Source of the DNA: Takakia lepidozioides
Lineage: Eukaryota; Plantae; Bryophyta
Direction: 5' to 3'
Assembly (NCBI GenBank): GCA_030704615.1
Contig: CM060731.1
Coordinates: forward strand, 27,776,001-27,840,000
Length of the DNA stretch: 64,000 nt
In this document: one piece after another, positions 170 through 45,304 of the stretch
Numbering within the stretch: the stretch's first letter is position 1
Layout: each line of letters begins with the position of its first letter
Translations under genes and position numbers: made by a program
The notes under the pieces: generated by a model
Databases searched by the model: none
Told to the model about the DNA's origin: nothing
Seen by the model: the letters and a program-made list of their open reading frames with translations, nothing else

Positions 170-334
170 ACTTATTTGATTTCAATAATGGTACGTGCTG
201 GTACAATCCTCTTGAAATAGTGGTAAGTTGCAAGCTCTCCCTTCGCTCTCACACTTTAGTGGAGTTCAATAATGATAGTGCTCAATAGTGCAGGTACGCT
301 AATACATGGCTCTTGAAATAGTGGTAAGCTGTAA
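170..334. repeat. Degenerate tandem repeat (ctctcacactttagtggagttcaataatgatagtgctc...) that is the Gypsy insertion target; continues at 9923-10130
   Basis: The same unit occurs on both sides of the element. Confidence 0.75.
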
Positions 335-522
335 TGTCGTGCGCATACATATCGCTACACAACTACATCGCTGTCCAAAACCACACAACACATGTGCACA
401 CCACACACTAGTATACCACTAGTCCACCACTAGTCCAGCCACTAGTCCAACCACTAGGCTACAACTAGTCAGTCACTAGGCTGCCACTATGCTGTCCACT
501 ATGGTAGTCACTAGTCCACACA
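335..522 (-). repeat. Terminal repeat B2 (188 bp, 3' terminus of element)
   Basis: Near-identical to 853-1040. Confidence 0.95.
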
Positions 523-523
523 A

Positions 524-850
524 TGATAAAGAAGAGGAATACAAGCACAAGCTCATGCGAGCTCACAAATCTGAAGCATAAACTCATGCATATATAACCT
601 CATCACTCAAATACAAGTCAAGCCAAGTGCACCCCACGCCATGGGGAATCCACACTACGGCGCCATAGCTAGGCGCGGCGAGGCTCAACTCGAGAAAGAT
701 GAGCCTCCCGCGCTTGCCGTGAAGATAACCACTCCACGGCCTAAATCTGCCTTGACCCCTGGATTGACACTTGGGCCAATCCCAAATGTCAATATGTAAA
801 AGTTAGCTATTTCCTAGCTAGTTTCACACTAGTGGTAAAATAACTTGACA
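524..850 (-). repeat. Terminal repeat A2 (327 bp)
   Basis: Near-identical to 9596-9922. Confidence 0.95.
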
Positions 851-852
851 GC

Positions 853-1040
853 TGTCGTGCGCATACATATCGCTACACAACTACATCGTTGTCCAAAACC
901 ACACAACACATGTGCACACCACACACTAGTATACCACTAGTCCACCACTAGTCCAACCACTAGTCCAACCACTAGGCTACAACTAGTCAGTCACTAGGCT
1001 GCCACTATGCTGCCCACTATGGCAGTCACTAGTCCACACA
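853..1040 (-). repeat. Terminal repeat B1 (188 bp, PPT-adjacent, U3-like; rich in CCACTAG motifs)
   Basis: Direct repeat of 335-522 with about 4 substitutions; begins TGTGTGG on minus strand right after the purine tract. Confidence 0.95.
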
Positions 1041-1052
1041 ATCGCCCCCATA
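1041..1052 (-). promoter_or_regulatory. Polypurine tract of the Gypsy element
   Basis: Minus strand TATGGGGGCGAT directly before TG of repeat B1. Confidence 0.7.
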
Positions 1053-1300: not shown

Positions 1301-1445
1301 CTATCCCAAGCAGTGTGGACACAACCAATCTCCGTCAGGAACTTTATCAAGAGGTGGTGTCAAGCATCCCATATGTCAACCCCTTGAGCATCGATCACAC
1401 ACCAGCATGGTGGCTGCCCCTTTGGCAGACCCACAGAGCATGCAC
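1301..1445 (-). pseudogene. C-terminal PHD finger of the pol polyprotein
   Basis: CMLC...CDRCSRG*HMGC...WLCPHC = C4HC3; one TGG>TGA stop. Confidence 0.9.
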
Positions 1446-1459
1446 CTCAAACTTGCAGG

Positions 1460-2721
1460 TACCACTGCCAAGTTTGGGTCAACTCTGCCATCGACATTGG
1501 GAAGGTGACATGGCGCACAATTACGCACATAGTCCTTCCAAGTCATGCCATCCCGACCCTCCAAGATCAGGACCCCTGAGGGCAACACCTCTTGAACCCT
1601 CAGAATAACACGCCCTGCAGTAACATTCAGAGTCATAGGAGCAATCTGTTGAAATAAACATAGTCACCAGGGCTAAACCTCCAAACCCCAGGACGATATC
1701 CTCCACCACGTATAGTGACATACCTCAACGTATCATGGTGCTGCGCAATGGCAAGGTTCTCAAAAGCCTTGGGCATGACTTTCTTGAACAACTCTGCATG
1801 CTGATCACATGCACGTACCCATACGTCCGGATCAACAAGGTTAAGGACTTGAGCAGTGTCCCTACGAATGGCTGCAGGCAAATCCGGCTCTCGGCCAAAG
1901 AGAAGGAAATATGGTGAGAAGGAGGCAAGTGATGCTTGTTTGCTGAACCTGTAGCCCATGGCTAACCAAGGAACCTGAAGATCCCAATCTCCTAGGTGTC
2001 CCTTCAAGCCATACTTGCGCAAACCCCTCTTCACCGTCTAAACAACTCTCTCTGCCAAGCCATCGGCCTCAGGATGATCCCGAGAAGTGGTGCGGTGGTC
2101 TATCAAGGCTTTATCACACAAAGCCTGAAACTCCCCCAAGAACTCTCTCCCTTGGTCCGTGAGTACCTCAGCTGGAGCACCAAATCGGCTAAGCACACGA
2201 TCCAAGAATGCATACGCAGACCCCTCACTAGCCTTGTCAGGCAATGGAACCAACTCAATCCACTTGGAGAAGTGCTCCACCATCACCAACACATATCTAT
2301 GGTGGCGCATAGTCAGTGGCAACGGTCCTGCGAAGTCAAGACTCCACCTGTAGCCCAATCCCATGATTGGTAACGGATGCAATTGTGGTGTAGGGGTGTT
2401 GAATGAAGCACGCACCCTGTCACACACCATGCACCTAGCCACGAACTGTTGCACCTCTGTATGCATACCACGCCACCAATACTGCCCCTGCAGTAAACTT
2501 TGAGTGCGTCGCACTCCAAAATGCCCCAACTCCTTATGGGCATGCCGCACTAACCGTGCACGCTGTGTGGGGTGAGGCACAATCCTCACCCGACCATCCT
2601 CCCACACTCGAAGTAGGTGTATCCCCTCCCACTTGAACCTCTTGGCTCGTTGCAAGATCCGATCCCTCTCCCTGGCAGTCACAGTGGCTGCCGTGTCTCC
2701 CGTGCGGAGGTAGTCCAACAC
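1460..2721 (-). pseudogene. DDE integrase (HHCC zinc domain and rve core)
   Basis: HAHKELGHFG...CMVC; SLDFAGP, TDQGREF, DGLAER. Confidence 0.95.
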
Positions 2722-2929
2722 AGCCGAATCTCTCTGGCACCACCTGGCTCATCACTAGCCTCAGGGTCTTCAGACACTTCATCTACAGTCATCCCTGTTG
2801 TAGGTCCAACCTGACCTCCCGATGCCAAGATACACAAAAATGCAGATGCGTGCCATCCCGGCACCATCTCCTCGTCCGTCTCACCATGCCACCGAGCTCC
2901 AATGTCATCCTCCTGGCTCATGCATGGAT

Positions 2930-3488
2930 TGCGACTCAATCCATCCGCATCTCAATTGACCAAACCCGATCGATGCACAACCTGAAAGTCATACTCCTGG
3001 AGTATGAGTGCCCACCGTGCAAGCTTCCCCGTAAGCTTGTCTGACTCCATCAACCACTTGAGTGGCTGGTGATCCGTGACAATGATGAAAAGATAGCCGT
3101 ATAGATAGCACCTGAAGTGTGCCATGGCCCACACTGCAGCTAAGCACTCTCCCTCATATGAGCTGTACTTAGCCTCTGCAGCGTTGTTCGAGCGGCTAGC
3201 ATAAGCCACTACGAACTCTCTTCCCTCATCATCCACCTATGTGAGCACCGCTCCAAGCCCCAGCATGCTCCAATCCGTATGCAGTTGAAAGGGACGCCCC
3301 CTGATAGGTCGTCTCAGGATAGGCGTCGAGGTCAACCTCGCCTTGAGCTCTTGAAAAGCTCGTTCCTGCTCATCTTCCCACTGCCACTCCTGGTCCACCT
3401 TGGTCAGCTTGGTTAGAGCCTTTGCAATGGTACTAAATCCCTTAACAAACCGTCTATAATAGTTTGCCAACCCAATGAAAGCTCGAAC
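2930..3488 (-). pseudogene. RT connection and RNase H
   Basis: FIGLANYYRRFV, LHTDWS, YSSYEGECLA, TDHQPLKWL. Confidence 0.95.
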
Positions 3489-4262
3489 TTGGCTCACATC
3501 CGTGGGGCGTGGAATTTGTGCAATGGCCTCTACCTTAGTCTATTGTACCCCCAATCCTCCAGGATATATCATGTGACCCAGATACTCAATCTGATTGTGG
3601 AAAAACTTGCACTTCCCCGGATGCAACTTCAATCCGTGCGCTCTCAAGTGCTCCAATACCACCTAAAGGTGTCTCTCATGCTCCTCCATCGTAACACTAA
3701 AGATGATGATGTCATCTATGTAGCACCGAGCAAAATCCACCCCTGCTAGAATCCTATCCATGACTCTCTGAAACTCTGCAGAAGCATTCTTAAGCCCAAA
3801 TGGTAAGAACCGCCACTGATATAGGCAATCCTTGCCGTGCTCATTGATCCCCCAAAATGCCGTCTTCTGCTTGTCCGCCTCCTTGATTGGCAACTGGTGA
3901 TATCCGGATCGTAAGTCCAAAGTACTTAAGACCTTAGCATGCCCGATGGCATCAAAGATCTCCTCTGGTGTTGGCATGGCATACTTATCGGACTTGGTCT
4001 GACGATTTATAGGCCGGTAATCACCGCACATACGTCTCTCCGTCCAATTGCCATAGACATCCTTCTTGGCTGGCATCAATGTGGCTGAAGCATACTCTCC
4101 ACCAGAGAGCTCCACCAAACCTGCCTCCCAAAGATCTTGAGTCCTCATCTGAATCAAAGACCTCTCCATGTCACTGTATCTATAGGGTCTCCGAAAGATT
4201 GGTGTGTCAGTGGCCAACTCAATACGGATCTCTTGACCCTTCAGTGCTCTCAAGTCCTTCAA
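3489..4262 (-). pseudogene. Gypsy reverse transcriptase
   Basis: RMCGDYRPIN, LDLRSGYHQ, LPFGLKNA and YIDD motifs. Confidence 0.97.
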
Positions 4263-4719
4263 ACTGAAGGCAAAGCAATTCCTGTAAGCCCTCAGGAACC
4301 GCCGTATATGTCGTCTCTCTCCTCCGGTGACAATGGGTCCAACATCAGGCTCCCAATTGTCCTCCGTAACTGCAACCTTAAGTCTAGTGGGCTTAGAGGT
4401 AGAGGACGCGTCCAGTGGTTGCTATGTTGCAACCTCTTGAGCAGTACTCCCTACCTGCTCAGTCAGTGACAAGGCCTCATCCTGCCCCATCATCTCATCC
4501 TCAAAGACTTCCTCCACCCGAGAAAAATCCCCAACCTCATCTTTCATCGCCACCTTGGCTGCCAACTCCCTCTTAACCTCGAGCACCTCCCACGTGTGCC
4601 ATGGATGCCTACACCCCGTGGTCCTCACATGCTCGCCCCCACTCACTACATGTATCGTCTCGGTAGGCAGAGAGACCATCAAGGGAAGTGTACTCCGCAC
4701 TCTGCGTTGCTCAGCCATA

Positions 4720-5690
4720 GCCAAGCTGATAATCCAGATCAAGCAATTGAGATCCATTGCTTGCCCCAACACTTGACGACGTGATGCCTCATAAAGAGAC
4801 GACACCGCCGTGGTACCAGTGGTAAAACCCATTGCCCGCTCACGCTCGTCAGCATTAGGCTCCACTAACTGCTGCAACTGAGCATCCCGCATGAGGCCAG
4901 GTCCACTATCCCGGAAAGCATGCGATCATGGGAAGCTGAGCAGTGTAGGTAATGCTGCTCGTGGTTGACCCACCTTGTTGACCACTACCAAAGGCGAATA
5001 ATCATCGTGTCTCACACGCTGAGACTGCCTCCCTGTGTCCAGAATGTTATCCACTGTGAGATGTGCTTGGTCGCTGCACCCCATCAAATGCACGCTTGAG
5101 CAGTGCGGATGGCATCAAGTTAGTCCACCATAGCCATGGACGATGAGCCCGTGACCCCACTGTAGCTGCATCTAGCAACACTGCTGACCCAAGCCACGAC
5201 CGGACTTGATGCACACTGGCCATCACCCTGGCCCGAGAATCGCCCATCAGTGGCACATTCTCCAAGATGTATGTTGGAGATACAGCTTGATGAAGCTGCA
5301 AGTGGCACAAAACCCGCACCATCTCCCAAAACAGACTCGACCTCGAGTCTCGCAATCCATTGTCATGCCCGGCTCATGAATGCCCTTGGCAGGGCCAACC
5401 TGCCACTACCAGATCAATGGAGCCAACCCGCTCCAAATCCTGCGCCCCCAACAACGAAATGTCTGCTGGCAAGGCCTGCTGATATCCACGAATTGCAGAC
5501 ACCAACAACAACTCAGGGTACCGCTGTACCAACTGAACAATATGGCGAAGTAAAACGCGTCGTGCAGTCTCATCCCTCTCCACATACAGGTAATGCCGAA
5601 CTCGTACACCTGCCTATAACACAACAGCCAATCCGGTGCTGATCCCGCCAAACAAGTCCAGAAGACAAATGCCTTCATCCGGATACTGCC
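4720..5690 (-). pseudogene. Retrotransposon-embedded cytosine-5 DNA methyltransferase domain (DNMT3-like, canonical motif order)
   Basis: Motif I LLDLFGGI (~5641-5673), II YVERDE, IV AGWPCQG (~5383-5400), SSLFWEM, VI LENV (~5255), VIII AHRPWLWWTN (~5120-5146), X LGQAMD (~4753-4770); no introns. Confidence 0.92.
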
Positions 5691-6032
5691 ACACAATAGG
5701 TGTGGTGTCCAATGGAGACAACTGAGGTGGTCCTGGTGCAATCCCCGCACTCTCCTCATCTCCTGACGGTACAAAAGCCTCCACCCAGGCTTGTTGCACC
5801 CGTCGATCAGCATCCCGCTGCAAATCCTTGCACGTGCCCCACAATGGAGTCTGAGCAACCATGGTAGGCAACTCCGTCATACCATACATGTCATCCTGCT
5901 CTCCCGGAGGTGGCACATCTTTTGAATGAGCGTTGCCCTCAAGCAACTCTCTAGGCCAACTCACTGCCGCTGTGAATGCTGCTAGTGTCGGCATCTTGCC
6001 TCGCTGGGCAACTGCAACTCCTCCTATGAACG

Positions 6033-7136
6033 TCACTGGGAGTTGCACACGCCGGCCCTCCCCTGACTGCCATGCAGGCCTATAGGAAGCTGACTCTTCC
6101 CAAAATCCAGGGTGAAGCCCATGGGGTACAACACTGCCCCACCAACCAAGACATCGTATGAGACCGCGTCTGTCACAATGGCCTTGGCTTGCATCACTGA
6201 GCCATCTGTAGCGTGATCCGGCCGTAGTCTGATAGCCAACTCACGTCGTGTCATGCCCCGAGCCTGCTCCAATCCTCCCAGAGACGTATGTATCTGGAAA
6301 CGACAAGGCTCCATATCTGCCTCCGTGAGGCCCAAGCCTGCAATAGCAGCTCTGCCCAGCATCAATGGCTGAGCTCCCGAGTCCAACAAGACCCGCAGTG
6401 GCCGGTACCTGTTGCCTGCCGGTCCACTCAAACAGAAAATGCCATCCTGGTTGTCTAACATGACAACTCCAGGTGTCATCATGGCGCGCTCAATGGCTGG
6501 CCTAGCTGGCAGCTCCATCAACCTGGCAGCTGCAGCTTGCCATGGCGCCGCCGTGGCAGTCTTGACCCTCAAATCCGAGGATCCCTCCGGCACTACACCT
6601 CCCACTATCTCCGCAGAAGATGAAGTAACATCCCCACTCTCACAGAGTGTAGCTGCTAGCCTGAACACCACAGCTGGTCTTACCCCCGGCGTCACAATCA
6701 TGGTAGCCGAGAACAATGGAGCCTGGCACACAGATGTGGCCGCTCCTAGCAGCACACTAGCTGCCGTAGCCTTGGCAACACTAGGGAGTGGTGCTACCCG
6801 TGTAGCTCTCCCCAATGGCATAGTAACCTCCGCCTCGGTAACAGTCGGGCGAGAACTAGGTGCCATGGATGGCGTCGACACTGTCTCCGCCAATGTGAAT
6901 GACTGAGGAAGCCTAGCCTGACGGCTTGCCTCCCCACGCTGTGGATCCAACTCCACCTCTGCACCTTGTGGCTCAGGAACTCGTGCTGCTCCTCGAGTCA
7001 CGGCTGCAGCAAACTCCACTTGCACTAGTGGTAGTGCTGCTCCACACATGAATCCCATACCTCCCACATCTCCTCCCTCAGGAGCAGGAGGTGGACCATC
7101 CGGCCTTAGAGCCGGTACCACCTGAGCTGTAGCCAT
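6033..7136 (-). pseudogene. Gag-pol linker and aspartic protease
   Basis: VLLDSGA active site and downstream DVLVG motif. Confidence 0.9.
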
Positions 7137-7139
7137 TGC

Positions 7140-8600
7140 AGCAAGCCTCTTCTAGCTGTTGAAGCCGGTTGGCCATGCCTTGGTCAACACCCCTGACCTC
7201 CGCGTCCTTGGCCATGTTGAGCTTGCCCTTGGCCTGCACCTCGTGGCTGGCCACCTTGTCCTCTCTGGGCTGCTCCACCTCGTCCTCGGCCACCATTATT
7301 CTCTTGGAACTGGCCTGGGCGCAACTCAGGATGCAAACCATAACACTAGGCCTCTCCATGCCCGTGCTTGCCACAATGCCCACACTGCAACTGTGTAGGC
7401 TGTGCATGTGCCGGCCCTTTGCCTCCCTCTGGGCAATCCTTCTTGACATGGGGTCCTCCACATGTCCAGCACACCACATCCGCCCGTTGTTGGCTAGCAA
7501 ATGAAAGGAGAGACCCCTGCATCTGAGGTCATCTCTGCCCTTCCCTGAGCTTCACCTGAGCCCCTTTGTTGCTCTATCCACTCTGCCAGCAAAAACACAT
7601 TTGCTAAGGTGGGTTGGGCCGCTTGTATGAGAGTTGCATCCCGCACCCTTCTCCTCAGCTCCTTGTCCAATATCCCATACCAAAATTGGACTGCCTGAGC
7701 TTCCGTAACCTCTTGAGTTACATTTATCAAGTGCCTCATGCGAGTGAAAGCCTCCCTCAAGCTCTCGGTCGGCTTCCGTTGGAACTCTTGCAAGCTCCGC
7801 AACTTCTCTGTCCTCACCCCTTGGTAGTTCCCTCTCAACTCTTCGAAGAACTCCACAACGGGGTTGAAGGCAAGCACGGGTACTAATGCTGGTGCGGTAG
7901 TGGCTTGGTTGGATGTCGTAGCTATTGTACCACCAGTCCCACTAGTCCCACTGCTACTTGCTGAAGCTGTCGGTGCAGCGGCAGGTGTAGCCACTGCCCT
8001 CGTGGCTCTAGTGCCCCTAGTGATGGAGACATAGTCGGGGGACCAGTACATCCTCCACTCCTCGATCTCAACCTCATGCCCCCACCTGAACTCATGGTAA
8101 TCATCCATAGGCGGCCCCTCAAGGTGTTGAAACAGCCCTTTCCATGCCATGAAAGGCGTAAATAGTTGTGGATTGCGCATTTGCTGCAAATCACACCAAC
8201 TATCAAACTCTTGGATAAAATCATCCAACCCGATGGTGCCCACCGCCCCAGAGTACCTTCGTGGCCCCTTGGTAGCTCCATACATCTCCTCCATTGTGTC
8301 CCACAACAATGGCAAAGAAACAACTTGCACCGCCGGTATGAGTCATCCTGATTCACAATCCGAATCAGAACCTTCCGTAGAAGACACAAGAGGTGAAGGT
8401 GGCCTAAACCACACACCTCGTCTCGTGTACCCACTAGTATCGCTAGTGCTCGAACCGGCACTGTCCCCAGCAACTAGTGGTACCTCCGTGTTGACACTCA
8501 ACCGGTCATGAACATGTCCCTAATCCCCTCTCCACAAGGTAACCGGGTAGAGAACCTGTTGCGGCTTATGGTTTGGAATACTAAGTTTCTAACATAGCCT
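7140..8600 (-). pseudogene. Gypsy gag with two CCHC zinc knuckles (frameshifted)
   Basis: ORF 7494-8330 resembles a retrotransposon gag (FQRKPTESLREAFTRM); alternative frame gives CWTCGGPHVKKDC and CGHCGKHGHGEA*C; 5' boundary approximate. Confidence 0.8.
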
Positions 8601-9579: not shown

Positions 9580-9596
9580 GCTCATCTTTCTCGAGT
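9580..9596 (-). promoter_or_regulatory. Self-priming primer-binding site (complementary to 9760-9776 inside repeat A1)
   Basis: gctcatctttctcgagt is the exact 17-nt reverse complement of actcgagaaagatgagc; no TGG tRNA-type PBS; perfect 10-bp stem-loop immediately adjacent (9554-9580). Confidence 0.8.
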
Positions 9597-9922
9597 GATA
9601 AAGAAGAGGAATACAAGCATAAGCTCATGCGAGCTCACAAATCTGAGGCATAAACTCATGCATACATAACCTCATCACTCAAATACAAGTCAAGCCAAGT
9701 GCACCCCACGCCATAGGGAATCCACACTACGGCGCCATAGCTAGGCGCGGTGAGGCTCAACTCGAGAAAGATGAGCCTCCCGCGCTTGCCGTGAAGATAA
9801 CCACTCCAAGGCCTAAATCTGCCTTGACCCCTGGATTGACACTTGGGCCAATCCCAAATGTCAATATGTAAAAGCTAGCTATTTCCTAGCTAGTTTCACA
9901 CTAGTGGTAAAATAACTTGACA
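9596..9922 (-). repeat. Terminal repeat A1 (327 bp, 5' end of element; TG...CA on minus strand)
   Basis: Direct repeat of 524-850 with about 7 substitutions counted by eye. Confidence 0.95.
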
Positions 9923-10919
9923 GTAAGCTCTCCCTTCGCTGTCACACTTTAGTGGAGTTCAATATTGATAGCTCTCCCTCCGCTCTCACACTTTAGTGGA
10001 GTTCAATATTGATAGTGCTCAATAGTGCAGGTACGCTAGTACATGGCTCTTGAAATAGACTTGGTAAGGTGCATTGAAGCTCTTCTTTTGCTCTCACACC
10101 TTAATGGAGTTCAATAATGATAGTGCTCATAGATTCGGATTTGTAGGAAGTTATTTCTGCCACATATATTTGTATTGATTTTTGTTCAATGAAATTTTCA
10201 TCTTATTACAAGCAACATGAGAAAAGGCTTGAAAGTTTTTTTGCTGGAATTTTTAGGCATTAGGCACTTTGGTCCCATAATTCCATACAATTAGGCCAAA
10301 ATTTGAATTCCCAAAACGCGTTAGGCACTTTCAATTTGAACTACAAGCCGTCATCTCTCCCTCTCATTGACACACCCTAGTGAACCCATCACAAAAGTAG
10401 TGACTGTTCTGCCCAAACTGTGTCTATGGCCACAAGGCTATGGCAAAAAAACGTCTTATGAGTAAGCCCTCTACTTCAAGGTAATTACCGTGGAGACAAA
10501 CAAAGGCCAACCTAGTGGACACTTTGCGCTGAGAAAAAGGGTTTTAATTTTTTTCCCTTGAATAATCTTAATAAAGTTCTCAAGAGGCGCTACCTCCCTT
10601 TTCGTTTTGTTTTTCAAAAAAAGTAAAAGAATGTTGGTCCATGGCCAAGAGTTTCAGAAGCTGAAATAGTTGAGCGCTAGGCTGGCGCGGGCTGGTCCGT
10701 CACCTAAGTGTCCCCAATATACAAAGGGAAAAGTCGCTGGTTGTCATAAACAAATACAAAATATCTTTGTGAGAACAACCCAACTGCGCACAGATTACCT
10801 CGATAGCCGTGGATCTCTAATCATGCGATACCAGCCACAAGCCAAGGTTATAGTAAAGAAACCAAAAGTTTTCAGATCAAAATTGTCAGTTTTCTAAGTC
10901 GGTTAACTGCTTGTAAACA

Positions 10920-13900
10920 GATTGTCGCTATCGCAGAAGGAGAAGGAGCACATCTTGGTGTTTTGTTTTAGAGAACTAGCAAATCTCCGTATTGGTTTTG
11001 GAAAAGGAGAAGATCTTGGTGTTAGCATGGACACGAGAAGTACGATGAGCGGCGTCGCCGCCAGACCTCGGCAAGGCCTGCAGCGCCGACAACTTAGTGG
11101 AGGTGTTGGCAGTAGCGACAGCGATAGCAGCGCTAAGCGAGCAAGCGGCCGCTGTGCAACAGTGGGCCCCACGCCGGTCAGGCTCGATCGGCTCGTCCCC
11201 CAACTCGTTCAGCCCCGACGCCGTACAGGCAGCCAACTCCAGCCCTCACCACAACCCCTTTACTGCCTACTCCACCATCCCTGGCAGTTCGCTCCCCAGA
11301 GCAACGAGAGGTGCTGAACACAGCCGCAACTGCTCCTACTGGAAGACTTGCTCCTCTTGGAAGACCCCAACGCCATCGTACCCCTACCCCTAGCTCACAT
11401 GTTCCTGATGCGCACCAGAGTCCAAGCTCCAGACACCAAGTTCAAGAAGAGTCGTCATCTTCACAACGGTCTTCTCCGCTGCTGATTCCAGGTTCTTCCA
11501 TTGGCACCCCACCGACCGAAGAACTCCCACAGTGTCTGTTGAGCCCTCCCCCGCTGCGCCTCTCAAGTAGGATTCGAGGTCCCACGCCAGTCACTTCTCC
11601 TCCAGGTTCTCCATCCCATTCTCGGCAGCGGCTTCAAGGCAGCCCAACTCCTCTTGGTCATGAGCCTCTCCACGTGCCTTCTTCTCCAGTTGTGCAGCCT
11701 GCATTGCCAACCCCATCACTCTTACCCCAATAGCAGGCGCCTCTCCCATCAGACCGTACTCCATGCCCAACTTGCGGTCGTCTTTTTGCGCGCATCAGAG
11801 GGCTTACGCGATACTAGCGCACGTGTGCGGCTCTTCATCAGTCCCACACAAATAGTACTTCTCCATTTCAGCCCAGTGTCTTGCACGCGCCACCTCCTGC
11901 CTCTGCTTGGCATTGGCTTTCAGCGCTAGATGTTCTGGGCGCATTTCAGCTAGGACTATCAAGGCCTCGTCTTTATACAAGAATTCCGGTGGCACTATGT
12001 CATGAGGTCCAACTGGCACTCCGTCTACCCTTAGACAGGTTGGCTCGTGATCTTGATGATATACCAGCATGGTATCTTTTCTTGTTATTTCCTCAGTGGT
12101 GTTTGGTTTTGCCCCCTCGTGACGGTCAGTCAGGGCACAGAGAGACGCGCATCCGTCTTCGCCGTTTTTGATCTGGAGATTGGGAGAGTCTGCAAGATGA
12201 GCATCAATTACGGGCACTAGCCCTTGCGGCACGTACCCCTCCCGCTTCCTCCACGCAGCCACCCTCATTGACCCACAGGCGACTTCGTCATAGTCTCATG
12301 TTAGGCCGCGTTGGCGAGTACTCACGCACGACCAAGGCTTTAGCACCTTCCTCACCAGCGCCTCCATCACCGGATACTGTCACTGCCCTCGAAGCCCTTC
12401 ACCCCATTAGCTCAGGATATTCTACCGCTTTTTGTTGAGGACTTCGAGCCAACTAGGATCTCAAGCTAGATCGGGAGGTCTTCACTCAGGCCTTCACGCG
12501 CAGTCCCCATCTTGCAGCGGCGGGTCCTTCCGGTCTCCTGTATGAGCACTTACGCGACTGTTTCTCTCCACAGGACTCTGTTAGTGGCTTCTCTCAGCTA
12601 TTTCAGATTTGCTCCTTTATTGCTGCTGGCCGTATCCCTGCCCCAGTGGCCCGTCTCTTTGGGGCCTCCAGATTGTTGGCTATGAGCAAACCCTCAGGTA
12701 CTGGCATCCGCCCTATCGCAGTTGGAGAGGTTCTTTACCGCCTTGTCAGCCGCTCACTTTGTCTTCAGTTTCGAGATGCCTTCTCCGGACACCTCTTTCC
12801 GCACCAGTTCGGGGTCGCCACTCCAGGCGGTTGCGAGGCGGTGGTTTAGGGGATTCGTGCAGCTCTTGATCTCCATCCGGATTAGGTGGTTCTCCAGGTC
12901 GACGTCACCAACGCTTTCAACACTGTGTCACGAGCGGCTATCTTTCAGGAGCTCTGTTCAGCCGGAGGAGATTTCCACCAGCTCATTCCGTTTGTTCGAT
13001 TATTCTATGCATCTACCACTCCCCTATACTACAGTCATCATTCTCGCCTAGGTGAGTGCTCCATCATTCAGTCCGAGGTTGGGACCCGCCAAGGCGACCC
13101 TTTAGGAGGACCTTTGTTTGCCATGGCTCATGTCCGCGCCCTCACGACTTCTGCACAAGTTCACTCATCTTGTTTTTTTCCGTCGGTGGCAGACGACACG
13201 CACATTGTAGGCCCTGCCTCACAGGTACTTTCAGCTTACTATCATTTTGTCACCCAACTCTTTGTCGTGGGCCTTTCAGTGCAACCTCGCAAATGTGCGG
13301 TGTGGTCTCCATCCGGTCTCCCTACAGATTTTGTCTTCCCTGCTCACTTCATTGCTCCGCCCAATGGCATCAGAATCCTGGGAGTCCCTTTTGACACCAC
13401 CCAGTTCACAACGTTCTTCTTGGAAGATGCACTCCACCAGGATGTCACCCACGCCGATCTCCTTCCTAGGCTCGGAGATGTACAGGTAGCATATGGAATC
13501 TTGACCAAATGTTTCTTTCAGCGTCCCTCATATCTCTTGCGCACTGTTCCACCCAGCCCAGATTTCCTACACCTCTTATCTGGGTTTGATACTACCATGA
13601 TGACTATCTTCGGGAGATTGTTAGGACCAGGAGCTCTGGAGGGTGCTCAGGGACTGTTGCCACGACAACAAGCCACCTTGCCCATCTCTTCCGGTGGTGT
13701 GGGTCTTTTGTCCACTGTCACTACCGCCCCGTCAGCTTTCCTCGGCAGTTGGGCATTGCCAGCCCTCGCTTCACGATTCTCCGTGACCATCGTCCCATCC
13801 TTATGGACGCCGCTGCACATGTCGACAGTGGCATTTTACCGTTCCAGCAGCATCTCCGCTCTGCACGAGATCTTCTTCCGGCACCGGCACGAGCATGTCT

Positions 13901-15007
13901 ACCACCATTTGAGCAGTTGGTTGCTCAAGGCCTCGACCATCTTCAGGAGTCCATTTCCGAGCGCGTGCACCGTCATTCCTTTTCTGGCATGCTCTCAAGT
14001 GCTTCTTCTGAGTTGCATCAAGCCCGACTTCTATCATGCGGAGCAGGGGCATGGTTGACAGCACGACCCACTATCGCACATTTTCGCCTCTCATCCCCTA
14101 TTTTCACTACTGCGCTCCGCCTCTGACTCGGTTCGCCTCATCCTTCGGCATTGGGCCTTCAGCGCTGCGTTTGTCTTCAGCCCATCGATGACCTTGCCAT
14201 CCATCTCCTCCGCTGTCCATGTGGTGATGAGCGCACTGCGTCTCATGATATGGTTCGCGATGCGGTGGCATTTATTGCTCGGGAGGCAGGGTATCATGTA
14301 CTGTGTGAGCAACCACATCTACGACCCATGCTCACGTCTCACTCTACACGTCGCCGTGTTGACATCGTCCTATCTATAAATGGTTTGCGTACCTTAGCAG
14401 ATGTCGTTCTCGCCGATCCCACTCGAGCGGATCTGCTATCTCGCGCAGCTACCACACCAGGCACGGCAGCCACTGTAGCAATCCAAGCCAAGGAGCGCGA
14501 CTACAACGATCGTCATCCCACCGACACATTTCTTCCACTGGCGGTCGAAATATTTGGCTCATTGTACCGGCACTTCGACAATTTCCTGCGGACATATGCA
14601 CATCATGCAGCCAAGAGCGGGTCCACTGGCATCCCACATGCCTCCGTCCTTGTCGCCTACTATCGACAACGTGTTTCAGTTGCTTTGCCTCGGGCTGATG
14701 TGGCTAGCTCCGCGTCATCTCGTCTTCCGCCTCTGCATGACACTTTGTCTATCTCCTTGCCTGATCTCCTCCAGGCTGTTGGCTGGGAGGGTCGCTCTGC
14801 TTGAGTAGTTTACTATAGCTTCTGTTTTCGTCGCTGGTTAAGTAGCTTACTATAGCTTTTGTTTTTTTCTCTAGCTGAGTAGCTTATTATAGCTTTTTGT
14901 TTTCTTCTCTTGTTTCTTGTTCCTCCCCCCCCCTTTTTGGGAACTTCACATCATATGCACGTTCACCCATTGTACATGTTGTAAATAAAGTCTTACAGTC
15001 TTACAGG
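10920..15007 (+). mobile_element. Non-LTR retrotransposon of CRE-like type (RT plus C-terminal restriction-like endonuclease), degenerate
   Basis: N-terminal CPTC zinc finger (~11770); RT motifs IRPIAVGE, QFGV, DVTNAFN, RQGDPLG, VADD; C-terminal CxC...HxxxC, RTASHD, RRVDIV...ADV, KERDY; 3' AATAAA followed by (GTCTTACA)2; 5' end approximate. Confidence 0.85.
14803..14905 (+). repeat. Three ~37-bp repeats (gagtagcttactatagctt...) in LINE 3' UTR
   Basis: Visible at ~14803, ~14839 and ~14877. Confidence 0.7.
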
Positions 15008-20959: not shown

Positions 20960-21460
20960 TGAGCAGAACTCAGTACCTTGGTCAAATAACTACTAGATCC
21001 AAAGGACTGTCCACCAGGACTACCCCAGGAAACACCATACTACGCTCAATGGCTGGTCTACCTGGCAACTCCTGCACCCAGCTTGCAGCTGCCACTTGCC
21101 ATGACACAGCTGTGGCTGTCTTCACCCTTGAATCCAGGGCATTTATGCACTGTACCTTATCCGCTATCCCTGTAGATAGTGCTGATGCATCACCATTCTC
21201 ATAGAGTGCAGCTGCCAGTCTAAACACTGTAGTTGGCTGAATCCCTGGCATTGCAATGGTCGTGGTAGAAAACAATGGAGCTTGGCAAACTGATGTAGCC
21301 GCCCCAACAATGTACTGGCTGCACCTTGCTTTGCAGCACCACCCAATGGCACTCGTGACTTTATCTCTGACACACTTGGGTGAGCGGGTGCCATCGAAGG
21401 CGTGGTTGGCACTGTCTCAGCCAATGTGAAAGACTGTGGAAGTCTTATCTATCGACTTGC
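20960..21460 (-). mobile_element. Diverged fragment of the same DNMT-Gypsy family (gag-PR linker)
   Basis: Translates to VFRLAAAL...RVKTATAVSWQ...ELPGRPAIERSM, matching 6410-6930. Confidence 0.85.
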
Positions 21461-25551: not shown

Positions 25552-28134
25552 ATGTGCTCAAACCAGGTCCTTTGGATTGAGAGTTCGTTGAACCTTACTT
25601 GGGTGAAAGCAGAGCTAGCTGACATGATGCAAGGTCGAGTACAATCTGGTGATGGCTCAAGTATCAATGTACAGCATGGAGAGCACAGCGCAGATTGCAA
25701 CAGGTAATGCTTTTATGAGAATTCAAGGGTGCCAATGCAAAGAGCCAAAGTTGGTGGAGTAGAATTTCCAAATAGATGACTCTGAGGTGTAGTGACCTAT
25801 TTTTGTAGCAAGAGGCCTCGCTATGGTGTTTGAGAATTATCGCGTGCCTGAGTTTGAAGGTTTTCAACTAACAGTTTGAAGTCATGCAGGAAGGCAGGCT
25901 GGAATCAGGCTCAGTTGTTTGTTGGAAATCATAGTGGCGGCAGGGGTAGGGGCCCCAACAGCACCACTACTCCTGAAAGAAGACCAAGAGAGGGACTCAA
26001 TCAGGCCTCTTATGGCATTCGTAGGTATGTGAGGTCACTATGTAAGGCAGGGCGACTGAAAGAAGCGCTGCACATTTTGAACCAACCAGGCATTCATGCA
26101 AACTCCAATACTTATGTCCACCTCTTACGGGAGTGTATCAACTTGAAAGACGTAGCCAACGGAAAGCAGGTGCATGCCCACATCATGCAAAGTGGATTCA
26201 AGCCAAATATCTTTCTACTCAATGCCCTTATCAACATGTATGCCAAGTGTGGGAGTGTTGTGGATGCCCGTCAAGTGTTTGACAAAATGCCTGAACGAGA
26301 TATGTTTACTTGGACTATGATGATAACAGGGTATGCTAAGCATGGGAATGCTGAGGAGGCTTTCAAAATATATGAACAAATGCAACGGGAAGAGGTGACT
26401 CCAGATAGAGTCACATTCATTTGCATTCTCAACGCATGTGCCAGCCTAGGACGCCTGGGAAAGGGCAAAGAGATTCATGAAGACATTATCAAAGCTGGAA
26501 TTGTGCCAGATATCATCCTGGAGAATACCCTTATCGATATGTATGCCAAATGCAGGAGTATGAAGGATGCAAGTCACGTGTTTGACAGGATGACTAAACG
26601 GGACGTGGTCTCATGGAGTGTGATGATTGCAGGATGTGCTCAGCATGGTTGTGGTAGGGAGGCTTTTGAGCTCTATGAGCAAATGCAACAGGAACGGGTA
26701 ACACCCAACAGGGTCACATTCATAAGTGTTCTCAATGCTTGTGCAAGCCTAGGAGCCCTGGAAAAGGGGAAAGAGGTCCATGCTGACATCATCAAAGCTG
26801 GGATTGCAGAATATATTAATCTGGAGACTGCACTTGTCGACATGTATGCCAAATGCGGGAGCATGAAGGATGCGAAAGAAGTGTTTGACGGTATGGTTAA
26901 CCGAGATGTGGTCTCATGGAGTGCAATGATTGCAGGATATTCTCAACATGGTCATGGTGAAGAGGCTCTGAAAGTCTATGAGCAAATGCAACAGGAAGGA
27001 GTAACACCCAACAGGGTCACATTCATCTCTGTTCTTGATGCATGTATTAACCTAGGGGCCCTGGAAAAAGGCAAGCAGGTCCATGCTGACATCATGGAAG
27101 CTAGAATTGCATCTTATATTAATCTGGACAATACCCTCATTAACATGTATGCCAAATGCGGGAGTGTAAACGAGGCTCGTCAGGTGTTCAACAAAATGGC
27201 TAATCGAGATGTGATCTCGTGGAATGCAATGATGGCAGGATATTCTCAGCATGGGTGTGGTAGAGAGGTCTTTCGCCTATTGGAACAAATGTTGGAGGAA
27301 GGCTTGAAACTGGACAGTATTACCTTTCTATCTGTTCTCTATGCCTGTAGCCATCTAGGCTTAGTGCATGAGGGCCAACACTACTTCGATTTCATGTGTC
27401 GAGATCATGGTCTCAAACCTACCATGGACCATTTTGGCTGCATGGTGGACCTTCTTGGCCGTGCAGGGCTATTCAATGAGGTGGAGGACTTCATGAACAA
27501 AATGCCAATAGAACCGGATACTTCAGTGTGGGGGGCCTTGCTTGGTGCCTGCAGAATTCATGGCAATGTGGAGCTCGGTGAAAATGCGGCAAAATGTGTG
27601 ATGAAGTGCAAACCACAGCACCCTGCAGCGTACGTGCTGCTATCAAACATCTATGCTGCGGCTGGTAGGTGGGACGATAAAGAAAAGGTGAGAAAAATGA
27701 TGGAGGATAGAGGTGTGAGAAAGGATCCAGGGCACAGCTGTGTGGAGGTCGACAACGAGGTGCATATATTTACAGTAGAAGACAAAGTACATCCACGGAT
27801 TGAGGAAATCCATGCTGAGCTGAAGAGATTATATGTGCAGATGAAGGATGCAGGGTATGTGCCTGACACACGCTTTGTATTGCGTGATTTGGAGGAGGAG
27901 GAAAGGGAACTTTCTCTTTGCCACCACAGTGAGAAGCTTGCTATTGCCTTTGCCCTCATCAGCACACCTCCCCAGACATCTATTCGTATTATCAAAAACT
28001 TGCGAGTGTGTGGTGACTGCCACACTGCTACCAAGTTCATCTCAAAGATTGTTGGGCGAACAGTTGTCCTACGGGATGTCAACCGCTTTCACCACTTCGA
28101 GGATGGGGTTTGTTCATGTGGAGATTACTGGTGA
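25552..28134 (+). CDS. PLS-class PPR protein with E/E+ and DYW deaminase domain (organellar C-to-U editing factor); probable exons 25552-25703 and 25875-28134
   Basis: Repeated P-L-S motifs, PG box, HHSEKLA, CGDCH, terminal CSCGDYW; GT-AG intron 25704-25874 in phase; true start may lie further upstream. Confidence 0.95.
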
Positions 28135-33854: not shown

Positions 33855-34240
33855 GGTCAGCTCCAAAGCATTCCTACCACACCGATGCTTGATAAAACCT
33901 GCCATCATTATATTCCACGTAATCAAACAACATTGAGGTATTATGTTGAACACTTGGTGAGCATCCACAATGCTCTCACACTTAACATACATGTTGACAA
34001 GGGTGTTGTGTAGAAAATCATTCCACTTTGGATTTTGTACTAATGAACTAATGAGAGACAGACATAAATATCTGAACCTGCTGCAATGCCTGCTTGGTGT
34101 AAAGTCTGTAGAGCCTCTTCTGTACCTTGCAAGAGACAGACACAAGTATCTGGATATGCTGAATGACTCTTGGTTTAAAGGCTGTAGAGCCGAGCCTCAT
34201 GTACCTTGCAAACTCCAGGGAGAAAACCTTGTGCATCTTA
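33855..34240 (-). pseudogene. PLS-PPR gene fragment
   Basis: FLHNTLVNMYVKCESIVDAHQVFN...ITWNIMMAGFIKH = S and P motifs. Confidence 0.75.
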
Positions 34241-34804
34241 CTTCCATGCCTGCTCAGGAAGAACAACCTGCCGCTGCTGCTTCTACTTCCAGTTGACCAT
34301 CTGCCCACGCAAGTTTATTATAGCTATGGATCCACATGGAATCAATTTTATGCTTGAAATCCAGCCCTCTCGGACAACTTCAGCTATCTCTGCCTCTGCA
34401 CCGATCATGTATAGATCCTTACTTGAACCTTAAACCCAGAAGAGGCATAAAAGACACCTTCTCTTCCTCCTCTTTTGGAAGCTCTGGTCATGGTCGAGGT
34501 GCCTGATTTTGTCAACTGTGTTGCTGCTATTGCTGATTCCAGTTGACCATCTACCCATATAGGCTTCTTCTAGCTTGAAATTCTCCCTCTTGGATGAATT
34601 TGGAACCACACTCTATCCCTAGTGCCACTGCACAAATCATGTGTACAAAGTGCTTGAAAATTCAAGCTCTAAACTACAAATATATGCAGCTCACACAAGA
34701 GGGCTTGTTGAGTGAGGGTTGGTTCAATACTCCTTGGGTGAAAGGAAAACTAATTGCCATCCCAAAAGATCCAGAACAGTCCAGTGATTGTGAAAGATAT
34801 CAGG

Positions 34805-36610
34805 CTACGGCCGGAAGCTCACATAATGTGAAGTCTGTTGGTGGGCATGCACACAATGTCCTTGGCAAAGGCCATGCCAAGTTAAGACTAAATGGTTCAA
34901 TAAAGAAAATATCTGACGTTCTTTACGTGCCTGGCATAAGCTCACATGGATGTCAAAACCTCGTTCTTGAATGGCGAATTGAAAGAGGAAGTCTTTATGA
35001 GACAACCAGAGGGATTTCAAAAGCCAGGTCATGAAACTAAGGTATGTAAATTGTTGAAGGCACTTTACGGCCTCAAGCAAGCGCCAGGTGCTTGGTATGC
35101 AAACATCGATTCCTTCCTTCAATCTCAAGGTCTTAACCGCTCCGGTGCAGATTACAATCTCTACTATTACAAAGAGAATGGCAAGGTTGTTTTGCTAATT
35201 CTCTATGTAGATGATTTACTGCTAACTGGCAGTCATTCAGAAAAGATAGCCTGGCTGCGCGAACAACTCAAGCTTGCTTACGATATGACTGATCTTGGCC
35301 TCATACAACTATATTTAGCAACTGAATTTCTTCATCTCAAAGAAGGCATTATGATCACTTAGAGGGGGTATGTTAAGAAATTGCTTGCAAAATTCGGATT
35401 CTCTCATTGCAATCCACATAAAGTGCCTATGATCGAGAATCTCAAATTGTCAATTGACATGGGCACTCCACTTTCAGATGCAACACTATATCGAAAAGTA
35501 GGGAAACTTGTTTATTTGACGAACACCATACCCAACTTGGTGTACTTGGTTGGAGCAGTGAGTCGTTACATGGAGGTGCCACAGAAGGCTCACATGGATG
35601 CGATCGATCACATCCTAAGATACGTAGCTGGTACAGCGGATTATGGGATCTTTTATTGAAGGGGATCATGTACTTTGCTAAATGGTCACACAGACGCAGA
35701 CTGGGCGGGTGAGAGTGATAATCGACACTCCATTTCAGGATGTCTTCAGAATGCGAGAAAGTGCAATCACTTGGAGCTCCAAAAAACAGCCAACTGTGGT
35801 GTTGTCGTCCACAGAAGCTGAATACCGCGCACTCATTGAAGGTGCCAAGGAGACCACTTGGTTGCGAAGATTGTACGAGGAATTGGGTATTATGAAGGAT
35901 GGACCAACTGTGATCAAATGTGACAATCAGAGCAGTGCAAAGATTGCTCGAAACCCGGTTTTCCATGCTCGCATGAAACATATTGAAGTACACTATCACT
36001 ATATCCACGAGAAGATAGAAAATGAAGAAGTAGATTTGATTCATGTGGCCACACAAGATCAGGTCGCTGATATTATGACTAAACCATTAGGAAGGCAAAC
36101 GTTTGAGAAATTTAGAGTGGTGTTGGGTGTTTGTAGTCTGTCTGAGATCAGCAACAAAGAAAAAGAATTTGGTTGACAGAATACCCTAGAGAAGATGCTA
36201 AGATTGAGAGGGGGTGTTAGAAAATTAGTGACTCTCTCAGCATAGGGCCCACTCGTGAGGTGGCCTCCCCTGTAGTATTTAGTTCAATTTAGTGTTAGTT
36301 AGTTGGCCATCCAGGTTTCTAGGCTTTCCCCACCCACCATTGTTTATTACTAGTTAATGCACTCCTTCAGATAAATAGGTTGCCTTCTAAGGGCTTTGTA
36401 TTCCGGCTGTAGTGTTCATGCTTAGTAACGCATTCAGGATGTTTTAACAAGTTCTGATTCTGGTGTATATGTTGGAGCTCATTCGAAGCTTGCAGATGAA
36501 AAAGAGTATGACTCAAAGTGATCTGACTAGTAATATTATAATACCAGAGTTCAGTGAAACTCCCTCACACTCCTCCACATCCTACATGAAGAAAGCTCAC
36601 CTTATCAACA
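34805..36610 (+). mobile_element. Ty1/Copia remnant (protease-region fragment fused to RT-RNase H, PPT and 3' LTR)
   Basis: SDVLYVPGI joined directly to [11 protein letters not shown]; LYVDD; WSSKKQPTVVLSSTEAEY; PPT GAGAGGGGG at ~36206-36214. Confidence 0.92.
36215..36610 (+). repeat. Copia 3' LTR (TGTT...AACA, 396 bp)
   Basis: Starts right after the PPT; end inferred from the inverted terminus. Confidence 0.7.
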
Positions 36611-42558: not shown

Positions 42559-42771
42559 TCAAGTTATCATTCCTGACGTCACGTGGCGCTGACACGTCGG
42601 TCGTCACGTCCGATGTGCGTCACGACACGTCGAATCCGGACGTTTATCCACGTAATTTTTTTACATTTGACTTTTACGATTTACTTCTACTTTTTGTAAT
42701 GACATGGCAACCACGGTGTAAAACAGACGTGGCCAATTATTAATATTTATCAATTCTATTTAAAAAATGAG

Positions 42772-43275
42772 TCCGCATATATTGGCGGTCGCATATAATT
42801 TATTATTTTTAATAAAAGCGACCGCCCATATTGGCGGTCGCCGGTAATTTATTTATTTTTAAATGAAGCGATCGCCCATATTGGCGGTCGCCCGTAATTT
42901 ATTTATTTTTAAATGAAACGACCGCCGAAATTGGCGGTCGCCCGTAATTTATTTATTTTTAAATGAAGCGACCGCCGAAATTGGCGGTCGCCCGTAATTT
43001 ATTTATTTTTAAATGAAGCGACCTTCCATATTGGCGATCGCCCGTAATTTATTTATTTTTAAATGAAGCGACCGCCCATATTGGCGGTCGCCCGTAATTT
43101 ATTTATTCTTAAATGAAGGGACCGCCCATACTAGCGGTCGCCCGTAATTTATTTATTTTTAAATGAAGCAACTGCCCATATTGGCGGTCGCCCGTAATTT
43201 TTATTTTTTAAAATGAAACGACCGCCCATATTGGCGGTCGATTGTATTTTATTACATTTTAAAATAAGCGGTCGC
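42772..43275. repeat. Palindrome array 1: GCGACCGCC-N6-GGCGGTCGC at exact 50-bp period (9 copies plus partials)
   Basis: Units start at 42818, 42868, ... 43218. Confidence 0.95.
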
Positions 43276-43855
43276 GTGTTTTTTTTTTTTTAGAAATCCA
43301 GGGACCCGCCGTGTGGCGTTTTGTTTTTTATTTTTAATCATGAAGCGGCGCCTCGGCCAGCCACGTGGCGAGGTGCCACGGGTCAGGAAAAACGAAACAA
43401 ATGGGATGGGGGGAGGTGGTTTAGAACCCTTGACCTCTCCCATGTGAGTGCGCGTGGCGAGGTGCGACTGGCCAGTCGCGCCTTTTCAAGCATAATGCCA
43501 TTTTTTTGGGGGAGGGGGCTGGTGGGCGCCTATATAAACTATTCCCCCCTCCTTTTCTGATCACTTTTGCTCCTCTTGTGGTGTGGTTCATTGGCATCAT
43601 GTAGTCATTTCGAACTTCGTTGCTTGGCACTGCCAACGGAAGGTGCAAAGGTGATTATTTGGGGGGGAGGTTTTGTCGGTTTTATATTGGTCAGTCGCAC
43701 ACACTTGTTCACAGTACAATCATCGTATCACCATTTGCCGTTTCCGGATCTCCGACGGCCTGTTTATTTGCAGAAAACTACGAAGACACCATCCACACGA
43801 GTTCATTGCCATTTTTCTGAGGTTTTGGACCATGTAGTGGGCAAAGGTTTATACA

Positions 43856-45304
43856 ATGTCGGGGGTTGTGAATTCAAGTTCTGGGGCGGGATCGTCTGGG
43901 GGGCGGAGGAAGAGAAAACGTGCCCACGAGCGGGATAGTCAGGTCAACAAGTCAGACTACCCGGGACCGGATGCCTCGGATAGGGTGAAAGAAGTGGTAG
44001 CGGATTATTTCAAGGGTAGGGACATGATGAGGCTGGAGAGTGCTTATGTTAGGCATGGATGAGAGGGGTTTCAGATTTTCTAGCAAAATATGGAGAGGAA
44101 AATGACAAACGCTTTGGCGGGGGCTAAGTGGATGGCGGACAGGGACAAGCCAAAGTTCAATCGGTGGATCCAAAGCAGGGCGAAAGACGCCACGTGAAAT
44201 TTGAGGCAGCTAATGAAGACATGGAAGGGTAGAACAACCGAGGGTCGAGTGCCCTCCACCGAAGCCGAGTTAATGCGGCGTGTTGAGTATTGGGCTTGCT
44301 CGGCAAGTCAGAATTCACGTGCCGGATTAGGGTTGTCCCTTGGAAGGCGGGGTCATCGGGCGGGGGAGGCACAACTGGTCTTTATTACCTGAACTCTAGT
44401 GCGAAGGTGGTAGAGATTGGCCCTTACAAAGAAGGAGGGTATGTTAAGGTCCGTCACTGTAGGAATGTTGGCGATTCTAGAATACCGGAGCGTTGGGAAC
44501 TAGCGGGAAAAAATCCAGAAAAGACGTTGAGACAACATAACGACGAGTGTTTAGCAGTGAAGTTCCAGCATTCAGGTGTTATCTCGTATTTTGCTGTGAA
44601 TGCACGTGAGGTAGAGGGTTACACTCGCTGGTGGAATGGGGGGACAATACGCGACATGATAAACCTTGACAAAAAATGGGGCAACGATTCGGACAACAGG
44701 GTGATTTTGGAACAAAGGGGAACGGAAGCAGAGTTCCAGGAATGCGATCGCTTGCTTCGTTTCCGGAAAGTGCGCAGTAAACTTGCATGGGCACTGGTGT
44801 GCATCATGGATGTTGTCCACAAGAACGGTGTCCTGCACAACGACTTGTCCCCCAACAACATCTTGTTGCATTTTCCAGATGGCACCGAGGAGATCAAGAT
44901 TGGGGTGTGTGATTGGGGCTTAGCCACCTCATTGGGCATATGCAAAGCCTCGCCGTACCAATTTGAAAACCAAGACAAGCTGGACCGGGAACTCGCGAAA
45001 AGATGGGGGGTGGAAAAAGATATTGCATCGGTTTTCAATGCGAATGCCAACCCCCCCCCACCCCCAGGACATGACGTTGGAGGCCTTTGCCGTTGGGAAG
45101 ATAGCGGTACGAATAAATGGCGGCGTTCATTATGATCAAAGTATGTTCCAGGACCAATTTACGGGAGGTTGTTGGCATTCAATGTTACAAAGGTTGTACG
45201 ACAATAACAAGAATGAGAGAGTCACATTAGCCCATGTAGTACTTCGGTTCGTGGGCAAGCCATTCAATTGGCCTCAGCCGAAAGACGTATATAGGACGGA
45301 GTAG
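43856..45304 (+). pseudogene. Intronless atypical protein kinase (frameshifted)
   Basis: EGGY, VLHNDLSPNNILL catalytic loop, VCDWGLA; frameshift at the poly-C near 45050; TATATAAA at ~43531. Confidence 0.85.

Follow-up and report, generated by a model that had tools for sequence, protein, structure and literature searches.

A DNMT3-like cytosine methyltransferase in a split-repeat Gypsy element of the bryophyte Takakia lepidozioides, positioned at the end of ORF1

The element and its methyltransferase domain

The window (the whole stretch of DNA analysed, 64,000 nucleotides of Takakia lepidozioides contig CM060731.1, assembly GCA_030704615.1, positions 27,776,001 to 27,840,000) contains a Ty3/Gypsy element on the minus strand, running from 9922 to 335 (9,588 bp, starting TG and ending CA). 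It encodes, in order, Gag, zinc knuckles, protease, a cytosine methyltransferase (MTase), reverse transcriptase (RT), RNase H (RH), integrase (IN) and a PHD finger. Its features are listed below from 5' to 3' of the element.

9923..9926, no strand: right copy of the 4-bp target-site duplication (identical 4 bases at 331-334)
9596..9922, minus: repeat A1, element 5' end, starts TG (likely self-primer at 9761-9776)
9580..9595, minus: primer-binding site, likely self-priming (16-nt exact complement of a stretch in repeat A)
7494..8342, minus: Gag capsid region (PF03732, E = 0.0012, below cut-off)
7340..7480, minus: two CCHC-like zinc-knuckle remnants (from translation; full in relatives)
6100..6480, minus: aspartic protease, LLDSGA near 6385, approximate bounds (motif read directly)
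4723..5673, minus: DNMT3-like C5-cytosine methyltransferase, motifs I-X (three stops, one frameshift, motif VIII substitution)
5652-5650, minus: F of motif I, LDLFGG (translation, as for the motifs below)
5580-5578, minus: E of motif II, YVERD
5391-5389, minus: C of motif IV, GWPCQ
5262-5254, minus: motif VI, ILENV
5142-5134, minus: motif VIII, AHRxW
about 4844, minus: motif IX, ADERE
4766-4764, minus: G of motif X, LGQAM
4416..4424, minus: conserved in-frame TAG (4424-4422) then CAA CCA, ORF1 end and likely readthrough site (junction comparison)
3567..4037, minus: reverse transcriptase core, YIDD (PF00078, 1.2e-31)
2991..3296, minus: RNase H (PF17917, 1.1e-34)
1633..2748, minus: integrase, H2C2 zinc finger and rve core, broken (PF17921, 5.6e-16; PF00665, 4.1e-14)
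1310..1444, minus: PHD finger, integrase C-terminus (PF00628, E = 1.3e-11)
1042..1049, minus: purine tract adjoining B1, likely the PPT (G-rich tract in the same place in five peat loci)
853..1041, minus: repeat B1 (pairs with B2)
851..852, minus: 2-nt spacer at the palindromic B1/A2 junction CA-GC-TG (read by eye)
524..850, minus: repeat A2 (97.9% identical to 9596-9923)
335..523, minus: repeat B2, element 3' end, ends ...CA (97.9% identical to 853-1042)
331..334, no strand: left copy of the 4-bp target-site duplication (identical 4 bases at 9923-9926)

The MTase domain (5673-4723) is free of introns, carries its motifs in canonical order and lies between protease and RT; translation and the Pfam layout thus bear out the first-pass annotation, which had read a DNMT3-like cytosine MTase at 4720-5690. 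PF00145 matches its N-terminal part (E = 5e-13, 49.6 bits against a Pfam cut-off of 22), and its top PDB sequence match is DNMT3A (E = 1.9e-8). A profile built from the MTases of 16 relatives gave 1.1e-21 for DNMT3A, against 6e-8 for DRM2 and 3e-8 for M.HhaI. When the naturally occurring relative P0001 was modelled (mean pLDDT 74), the best Foldseek match was DNMT3A/B (E = 2.5e-15) and every row listed was a DNMT3; the ESM Atlas returned generic C5-MTase clusters only, the top cluster being from Streptophyta. On this ranking of similarity by sequence profile and fold, as distinct from a tree that includes host DNMTs, the window MTase appears nearer to DNMT3A/B than to DRM, DNMT2 or bacterial MTases.

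The domains downstream of the MTase (RT, RNase H, integrase and PHD) all exceed their Pfam cut-offs. The protease of the window copy had no Pfam match; it aligns to that of a Klebsormidium relative, P0465 (PF13650, 1.6e-4, below its cut-off). The Gag region is 53-65% identical to Marchantia ORF1 N-termini in most long matches. The window element is a dead copy. In-frame stops interrupt its MTase at 5613-5611, 5376-5374 and 4928-4926, frameshifts lie near 5067 (in the MTase) and near 6101, and more breaks occur in gag, RT and integrase. Motif VIII has Trp here in place of its second Arg, which 53/79 relatives keep.

The first-pass annotation had called this an LTR retrotransposon. It is a Ty3/Gypsy element, but its repeats are not ordinary LTRs: two full identical LTRs flanking an internal region are absent, and the repeats are instead split as A (327 bp) - coding - B (189 bp) - GC - A - B, with both pairs 97.9% identical. 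The A-coding-B-A-B layout was also seen in 5 of the 16 related loci examined, several others lacking one end. The CA-GC-TG junction is common to those five peat loci, either intact (L073) or decayed, and is one change off in L064, L068 and L070. By eye, an exact 4-bp duplication flanks the window element, L047, L068 and L073, with one mismatch in L070 and an unclear state in L064. A DIRS/Ngaro tyrosine-recombinase element was considered and rejected, as an rve DDE integrase and a 4-bp duplication are present. Troyka was likewise rejected on the TG..CA ends and 4-bp duplication, Troyka elements being described in the available text of PMC12440569 as having CG..CG ends and a 3-bp duplication and as confined to animals. 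Programs that search for LTRs may miss the family on account of its split repeats.

The 16 bases that follow A1 are exactly complementary to a stretch that lies 182 nt from the A end. In L073 a complement of 21 nt with one mismatch, different in sequence, lies 181 nt from the A end. In four of the five peat copies the complement is only 7-10 nt, inside the control range (300 random, best 11 nt). The complements of the window and L073 suggest Tf1-like self-priming, which Neumann 2019, in its available text, predicts for Tcn1 and TAR elements. No tRNA genes were found in the 64-kb window. The integrated form is equivalent, at the level of sequence and not as a demonstrated pathway, to a two-LTR circle (LTR = B-GC-A) opened at the palindrome in one LTR, and only this single permutation occurs in the six complete elements (6/6).

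The element is inserted in a short host tandem repeat (190-330 and 9925-10132), and excising it with one copy of the duplication regenerates a repeat unit like 221-240. Two fragments of the same Gypsy family lie elsewhere in the window, one at 59195-60010 (plus strand; gag and zinc-knuckle region, about 81%) and one at 21043-21302 (minus strand; pre-protease region, 72%). Other retroelement remains are a Copia RT fragment (34579-36176, plus; RVT_2, E = 6.7e-38), a Gypsy RNase H fragment (63072-63452, minus) and a non-LTR retrotransposon (11804-14808, plus; RVT_1, E = 1e-5, below cut-off). The last has a C-terminal Cys/His region, which we take to be a possible restriction-like endonuclease region and for which no Pfam match was found. 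A hAT transposase (54971-56992, minus; DUF659, E = 5.9e-31; hAT dimerisation, 2.6e-7) is flanked by arrays of palindromic units (about 52500-53750 and 57480-58530), likely subterminal repeats, and a 50-nt-period array of a similar unit (42753-43320) lies near a kinase-like ORF (44287-45135). The window also holds a GH17 gene and an uninterrupted gene for a PPR-E-DYW RNA-editing factor (25858-28134, plus; 758 aa), for which all named matches among the 120 listed are from land plants, at 48-63%, with no close relative. A tree of 66 rows drawn from these 120 gave the PPR gene no supported placement within land plants. A broken, inverted PPR-like fragment lies at about 33865-34016.

Relatives, selection and published elements

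Protein searches matched 174 of 1,052 candidates and 35 of 4,345 longer ones. The named matches are from Marchantia polymorpha, M. paleacea, Calypogeia fissa and three Sphagnum species, and the named relatives with the MTase span three genera of bryophytes and two of streptophyte algae. The earlier proposal that the system persisted into embryophytes is upheld by the relatives in Marchantia, Calypogeia and Sphagnum, to which the best MTase identity is 72-75%; the window family is distinct from the families of all three. The element family is very abundant in its host, 24,349 of the 3,038,600 contigs of one DNA run (X1) mapping to 4200-6400 with all 30 bins covered (contig counts, which are not copy numbers).

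At E<1e-30 a profile search gave 528 representatives. Two layouts predominate in 149 of the top 150, one with the MTase between RNase H and integrase and one with the MTase after the protease; the full RT-RH-MTase-IN-PHD order occurs in 34/149. The layouts fall on opposite sides of one branch, with support of 97 in a 141-row FastTree tree and 99/98 in a 41-row IQ-TREE tree. In the after-protease group are K. nitens GAQ93235.1, Closterium proteins and 11 rows that form a 100/100 group, which includes the window and every bryophyte sequence of the tree that has a name. The 41-row tree, rooted on the RH-MTase-IN group, made without host DNMT3s or an accompanying RT tree and leaving the branching within the after-protease group open, fits vertical descent in streptophytes, short of proof. 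The RH-MTase-IN group makes up 86 rows of the 141-row tree and consists of Gypsy polyproteins with a C-terminal PHD. Its sole named member is P0381 from a chlorophyte, Scenedesmus sp. PABB004, and no description of the group was found in the literature searched.

From 146 relatives in metagenomes, 80 loci were kept, and the gag-PR-MTase-RT-RH-IN-PHD order recurs in those long enough to show it. The first-pass annotation had raised the prospects that the domain is missing from the rest of the family, evolves neutrally or has lost its catalytic residues. The 80 loci and the protein relatives carry the MTase, with the catalytic Cys kept in 79/80 and the E, N and V of motif VI in 73/80, 78/80 and 76/80; in motif I, F is kept in 76/78 and G in 77/78. 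The two motif VIII Arg codons are kept in 58/80 and 53/79, a decay as CpG deamination predicts. Between the window and L003, L006 and L033, pN is 0.17-0.22 in the MTase at pS 0.70-0.78, 0.13-0.14 in RT and 0.36-0.48 in the flanking linkers. MTase omega, which is rough because synonymous sites are near saturation between families, is 0.095-0.11 for the window against L003 and L006 and 0.15-0.22 for L006 against L033 and L077; pairwise values inside the peat family are 0.3-0.8, as expected for dead copies. By these estimates the MTase appears to be under purifying selection between families (omega about 0.1 where computable), contrary to neutral evolution.

The closest published element is KnitGypsy-Dnmt3 of the alga Klebsormidium nitens (de Mendoza 2018, PMC5890265), which, as described in the available parts of that paper, has like the window element Gypsy domains, an intronless and unrearranged DNMT3-like MTase, DIRS-like A-coding-B-A-B repeats and purifying selection (Ka/Ks < 0.2). 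Its legends give the KnitGypsy-Dnmt3 repeats as DIRS-type (Fig. 4c) and define A-coding-B-A-B (Fig. 1e). The K. nitens relative in our trees, GAQ93235.1, may or may not be one of the paper's copies; it has the Gag-protease-MTase order of the window and lies on the same side of the 99/98 branch. PMC5890265 places the DNMT of KnitGypsy-Dnmt3 in the Pol ORF, whereas the window MTase ends ORF1 before a stop; GAQ93235.1, a partial sequence, ends just past the MTase, so the K. nitens layout may be alike. The window element further differs in having a land plant as host, in its very high copy number (K. nitens has fewer copies than Symbiodinium) and in its PHD finger, 4-bp duplication, self-priming site and readthrough context, none of which was found in the available text of PMC5890265. 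Since it groups with Klebsormidium KnitGypsy-Dnmt3 and shares the split repeats, the kind of element is already known, and the window element is a range extension of the published DNMT3-Gypsy kind into land plants. The 2018 survey table, as available, lists Physcomitrella and neither Marchantia nor Sphagnum (PMC5890265), and later mentions say only 'streptophytes', citing de Mendoza 2018. No description of land-plant DNMT3-Gypsy elements, their stop or their self-priming was found in the literature searched (Repbase being outside its scope), and neither 'methyltransferase' nor 'PHD' occurs in the text of Neumann 2019.

Other systems share part of this architecture. SymbioDIRS-Dnmt3 of Symbiodinium is likewise a retroelement-borne DNMT3 with A-coding-B-A-B repeats, but has a tyrosine recombinase instead of a DDE integrase and is described, in the parts of PMC5890265 available, as an independent acquisition. 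The EpiLTRs of Cymbomonas and Euglena (bioRxiv 10.64898/2026.05.21.726589, available in part) are also LTR elements that combine a cytosine MTase with a chromatin reader; the DNMT they carry, a sister of DNMT4, is accompanied by DAM and a chromodomain, whereas the window has a DNMT3-like MTase and a PHD finger, and no Pfam match to DAM or chromodomain in the window. The host proteins PpDNMT3a/b (Yaari et al, 2019, PMC6453930) have, as the window MTase does, a DNMT3-class catalytic domain in canonical motif order. According to the available text of that paper, plant DNMT3 is a cellular gene with an N-terminal domain of unknown function, and DRM is permuted.

The stop codon between methyltransferase and reverse transcriptase

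The relatives include uninterrupted Gag-protease-MTase proteins of 1278-1332 aa, four from Marchantia (P0125, P0171, P0178 and P0179) and others in the same size range (P0161, P0192 and P0196). All of these terminate in the linker past the MTase, short of RT, and the MTase is the C-terminal part of ORF1 (Gag-protease-MTase), outside the reading unit of RT. The earlier placement of the domain "inside pol" therefore holds for its position between protease and RT and fails for the RT reading unit, as the conserved stop makes the MTase end ORF1.

We compared 54 sequences (53 loci and the window) that have an RT match right after the MTase. A stop followed by CAACC(A/C) is present at 52 of the 54 junctions. 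All 46 rows with a full start have the in-frame stop (29 TAG, 17 TAA), in the context CAACCC in 44 and CAACCA in 2. The other eight show the stop and CAACC(A/C) in six cases; the junction of L077 reads TAG TAG CCA, and that of L038 is deleted, its match being spurious. Because most of the 54 junctions come from one peat family and some represent the same site from related metagenomes, the independent DNA evidence amounts to four families, L077 among them, in which 100-137 codons separate motif X from the stop and the stop is in frame with both sides. Within the element family of the host, no alternative letter reaches 2% at 4416-4424 among 571 contigs. The TAA variants were considered as a functional subfamily and rejected, as the 17 TAA rows, out of 49 that are non-redundant, are dispersed across the tree, a distribution expected from recurrent decay.

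The window junction, UAG CAA CCA, is a full match to UAG CAR YYA, the TMV (type I) readthrough context, for which about 10% readthrough in vivo is given in the available parts of PMC2754532 and PMC13517186; the CAR YYA context is effective with all three stops in plants (same sources). Here the stop divides Gag-PR-MTase from RT-IN. The peat family junction, CAA CCC, is one base (+6) off CAR YYA and has an AUG at +7. A similar basal stem folds after the stop in all four families, and a stimulatory stem had no statistical support (z-scores of -0.12 to -2.42 for eight sequences, covariation term -0.09). Closterium and other algal relatives (P0500, P0378 and P0499) have a single uninterrupted Gag-PR-MTase-RT frame, so not every member of the clade needs the stop. 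Given the conserved stop between MTase and RT, RT-RNase H-integrase-PHD likely needs readthrough, and the MTase, as the end of ORF1, would be made at Gag level.

Proposed role of the methyltransferase and alternatives

Why retrotransposons keep a transposon-silencing enzyme has been a question since 2018, and no Gypsy-borne DNMT has a shown activity. With little more than even confidence, we lean towards an account in which every Gag would be synthesized with an MTase attached, which would be packaged, cut free by the protease and active on new cDNA (probably at CG), RT-IN-PHD being a minor readthrough product. ORF1 encodes Gag, protease and the DNMT3-like MTase, which would place the enzyme at capsid level, and RT-RNase H-integrase-PHD would be reached by readthrough of UAG CAA CC(A/C), near 10% by analogy with TMV. 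Within the particle the protease would free the MTase, reverse transcription would be self-primed, and the enzyme would methylate the element's own new cDNA, CG, by analogy with SymbioDIRS-Dnmt3 and DNMT3A, being its likely target. Integration would start from a form in which the internal CA-GC-TG palindrome had been opened. The likely benefit is that new copies arrive pre-marked, as camouflage or with less harm to the host. Methylation of cDNA was already hypothesized in de Mendoza 2018, mainly for DIRS elements, and SymbioDIRS-Dnmt3 methylates CG de novo in yeast (PMC5890265, available parts). The lack of yeast methylation by KnitGypsy-Dnmt3, the one Gypsy enzyme assayed, counts against the account. 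The ORF1 position predicts an abundant, packaged enzyme, which is sharper than 'somewhere in Pol'.

It is conceivable, though we consider it unlikely, that the enzyme is active on chromatin at or after integration instead of on particle cDNA, with the PHD finger reading histone H3 tails and the MTase marking the insertion site or older copies. In host DNMT3s a histone reader accompanies the catalytic domain, the integrase of the element closes with a PHD finger, and in the 34/149 representatives of RT-RH-MTase-IN-PHD order the MTase stands directly before the integrase; the land-plant MTase, however, lies before the stop with Gag, separated from integrase and PHD, which suits a role in the particle better. 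We think it more improbable that the MTase has been retained for binding DNA or RNA in the particle, with no catalytic role. In favour of this, the Klebsormidium KnitGypsy-Dnmt3 enzyme gave no de novo methylation in yeast, a result its authors regard as inconclusive as DNMT3B failed too (PMC5890265, available parts); against it, the SAM-binding motif I, the catalytic PC and ENV are all conserved and persist from Klebsormidium and Scenedesmus to bryophytes. The intronless domain and the broken state of the window copy would suit a neutrally evolving host DNMT3 cDNA captured by this copy alone, a reading to which we give practically no credence and which is refuted by the family-wide presence of the domain, its occurrence in several genera and its purifying selection.

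The same layout might also be expressed with the stop bypassed by splicing, the TAG serving as a 3' acceptor, or by reinitiation, and not by readthrough; this we rate as somewhat less likely still than action on chromatin. TAG is also a canonical splice acceptor, and in Ogre elements an intron joins the Gag-protease and RT ORFs. The peat family has a U-rich run before the TAG as well as its AUG at +7, and gene models from Marchantia and Sphagnum omit the stop (P0131, P0132, P0140 and P0145). These four models skip it at four different places, so the skipping looks like an artefact of prediction. Separate Gag-protease and RT ORFs are described for Ogre in the available text of Neumann 2019. The window junction, on the other hand, lacks a U-rich run, and the position of the peat AUG is CTG, GTG or TTA in the window, L033 and L020. 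The first Met past the stop in the window is about 85 codons in, inside RT, and the frame and CAA CC are conserved across families, which again counts against both bypasses.

A broader reading, which we offer tentatively and think possible although doubtful as a whole, joins readthrough and cDNA methylation with the trees. It would have an ancient green-lineage clade of PHD-integrase Gypsy elements in which an active DNMT3 moved between a Pol slot (RH-MTase-IN, in Scenedesmus and many relatives) and the Gag-protease slot (in streptophytes). In land plants a readthrough stop would later have turned it into a capsid-level enzyme, and each particle would methylate its self-primed cDNA, which would then integrate via the internal palindrome. 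If this reading were true, the family's insertions would be silent from the outset with no need of host RdDM, and its mass amplification could influence the methylomes of bryophytes.

The question of 2018 can now be addressed by experiment in a genetic model, Marchantia polymorpha, where uninterrupted ORF1s such as Mp4g09160 and Mp5g06330 occur. Several Marchantia and Sphagnum gene models are transposon ORFs, which can inflate host DNMT counts. The Marchantia polymorpha models of the P0125 cluster (18 members, four of them listed on the male sex chromosome) and P0126 are transposon ORF1s annotated as host genes, and UniRef labels some of the relatives DNA (cytosine-5)-methyltransferase.
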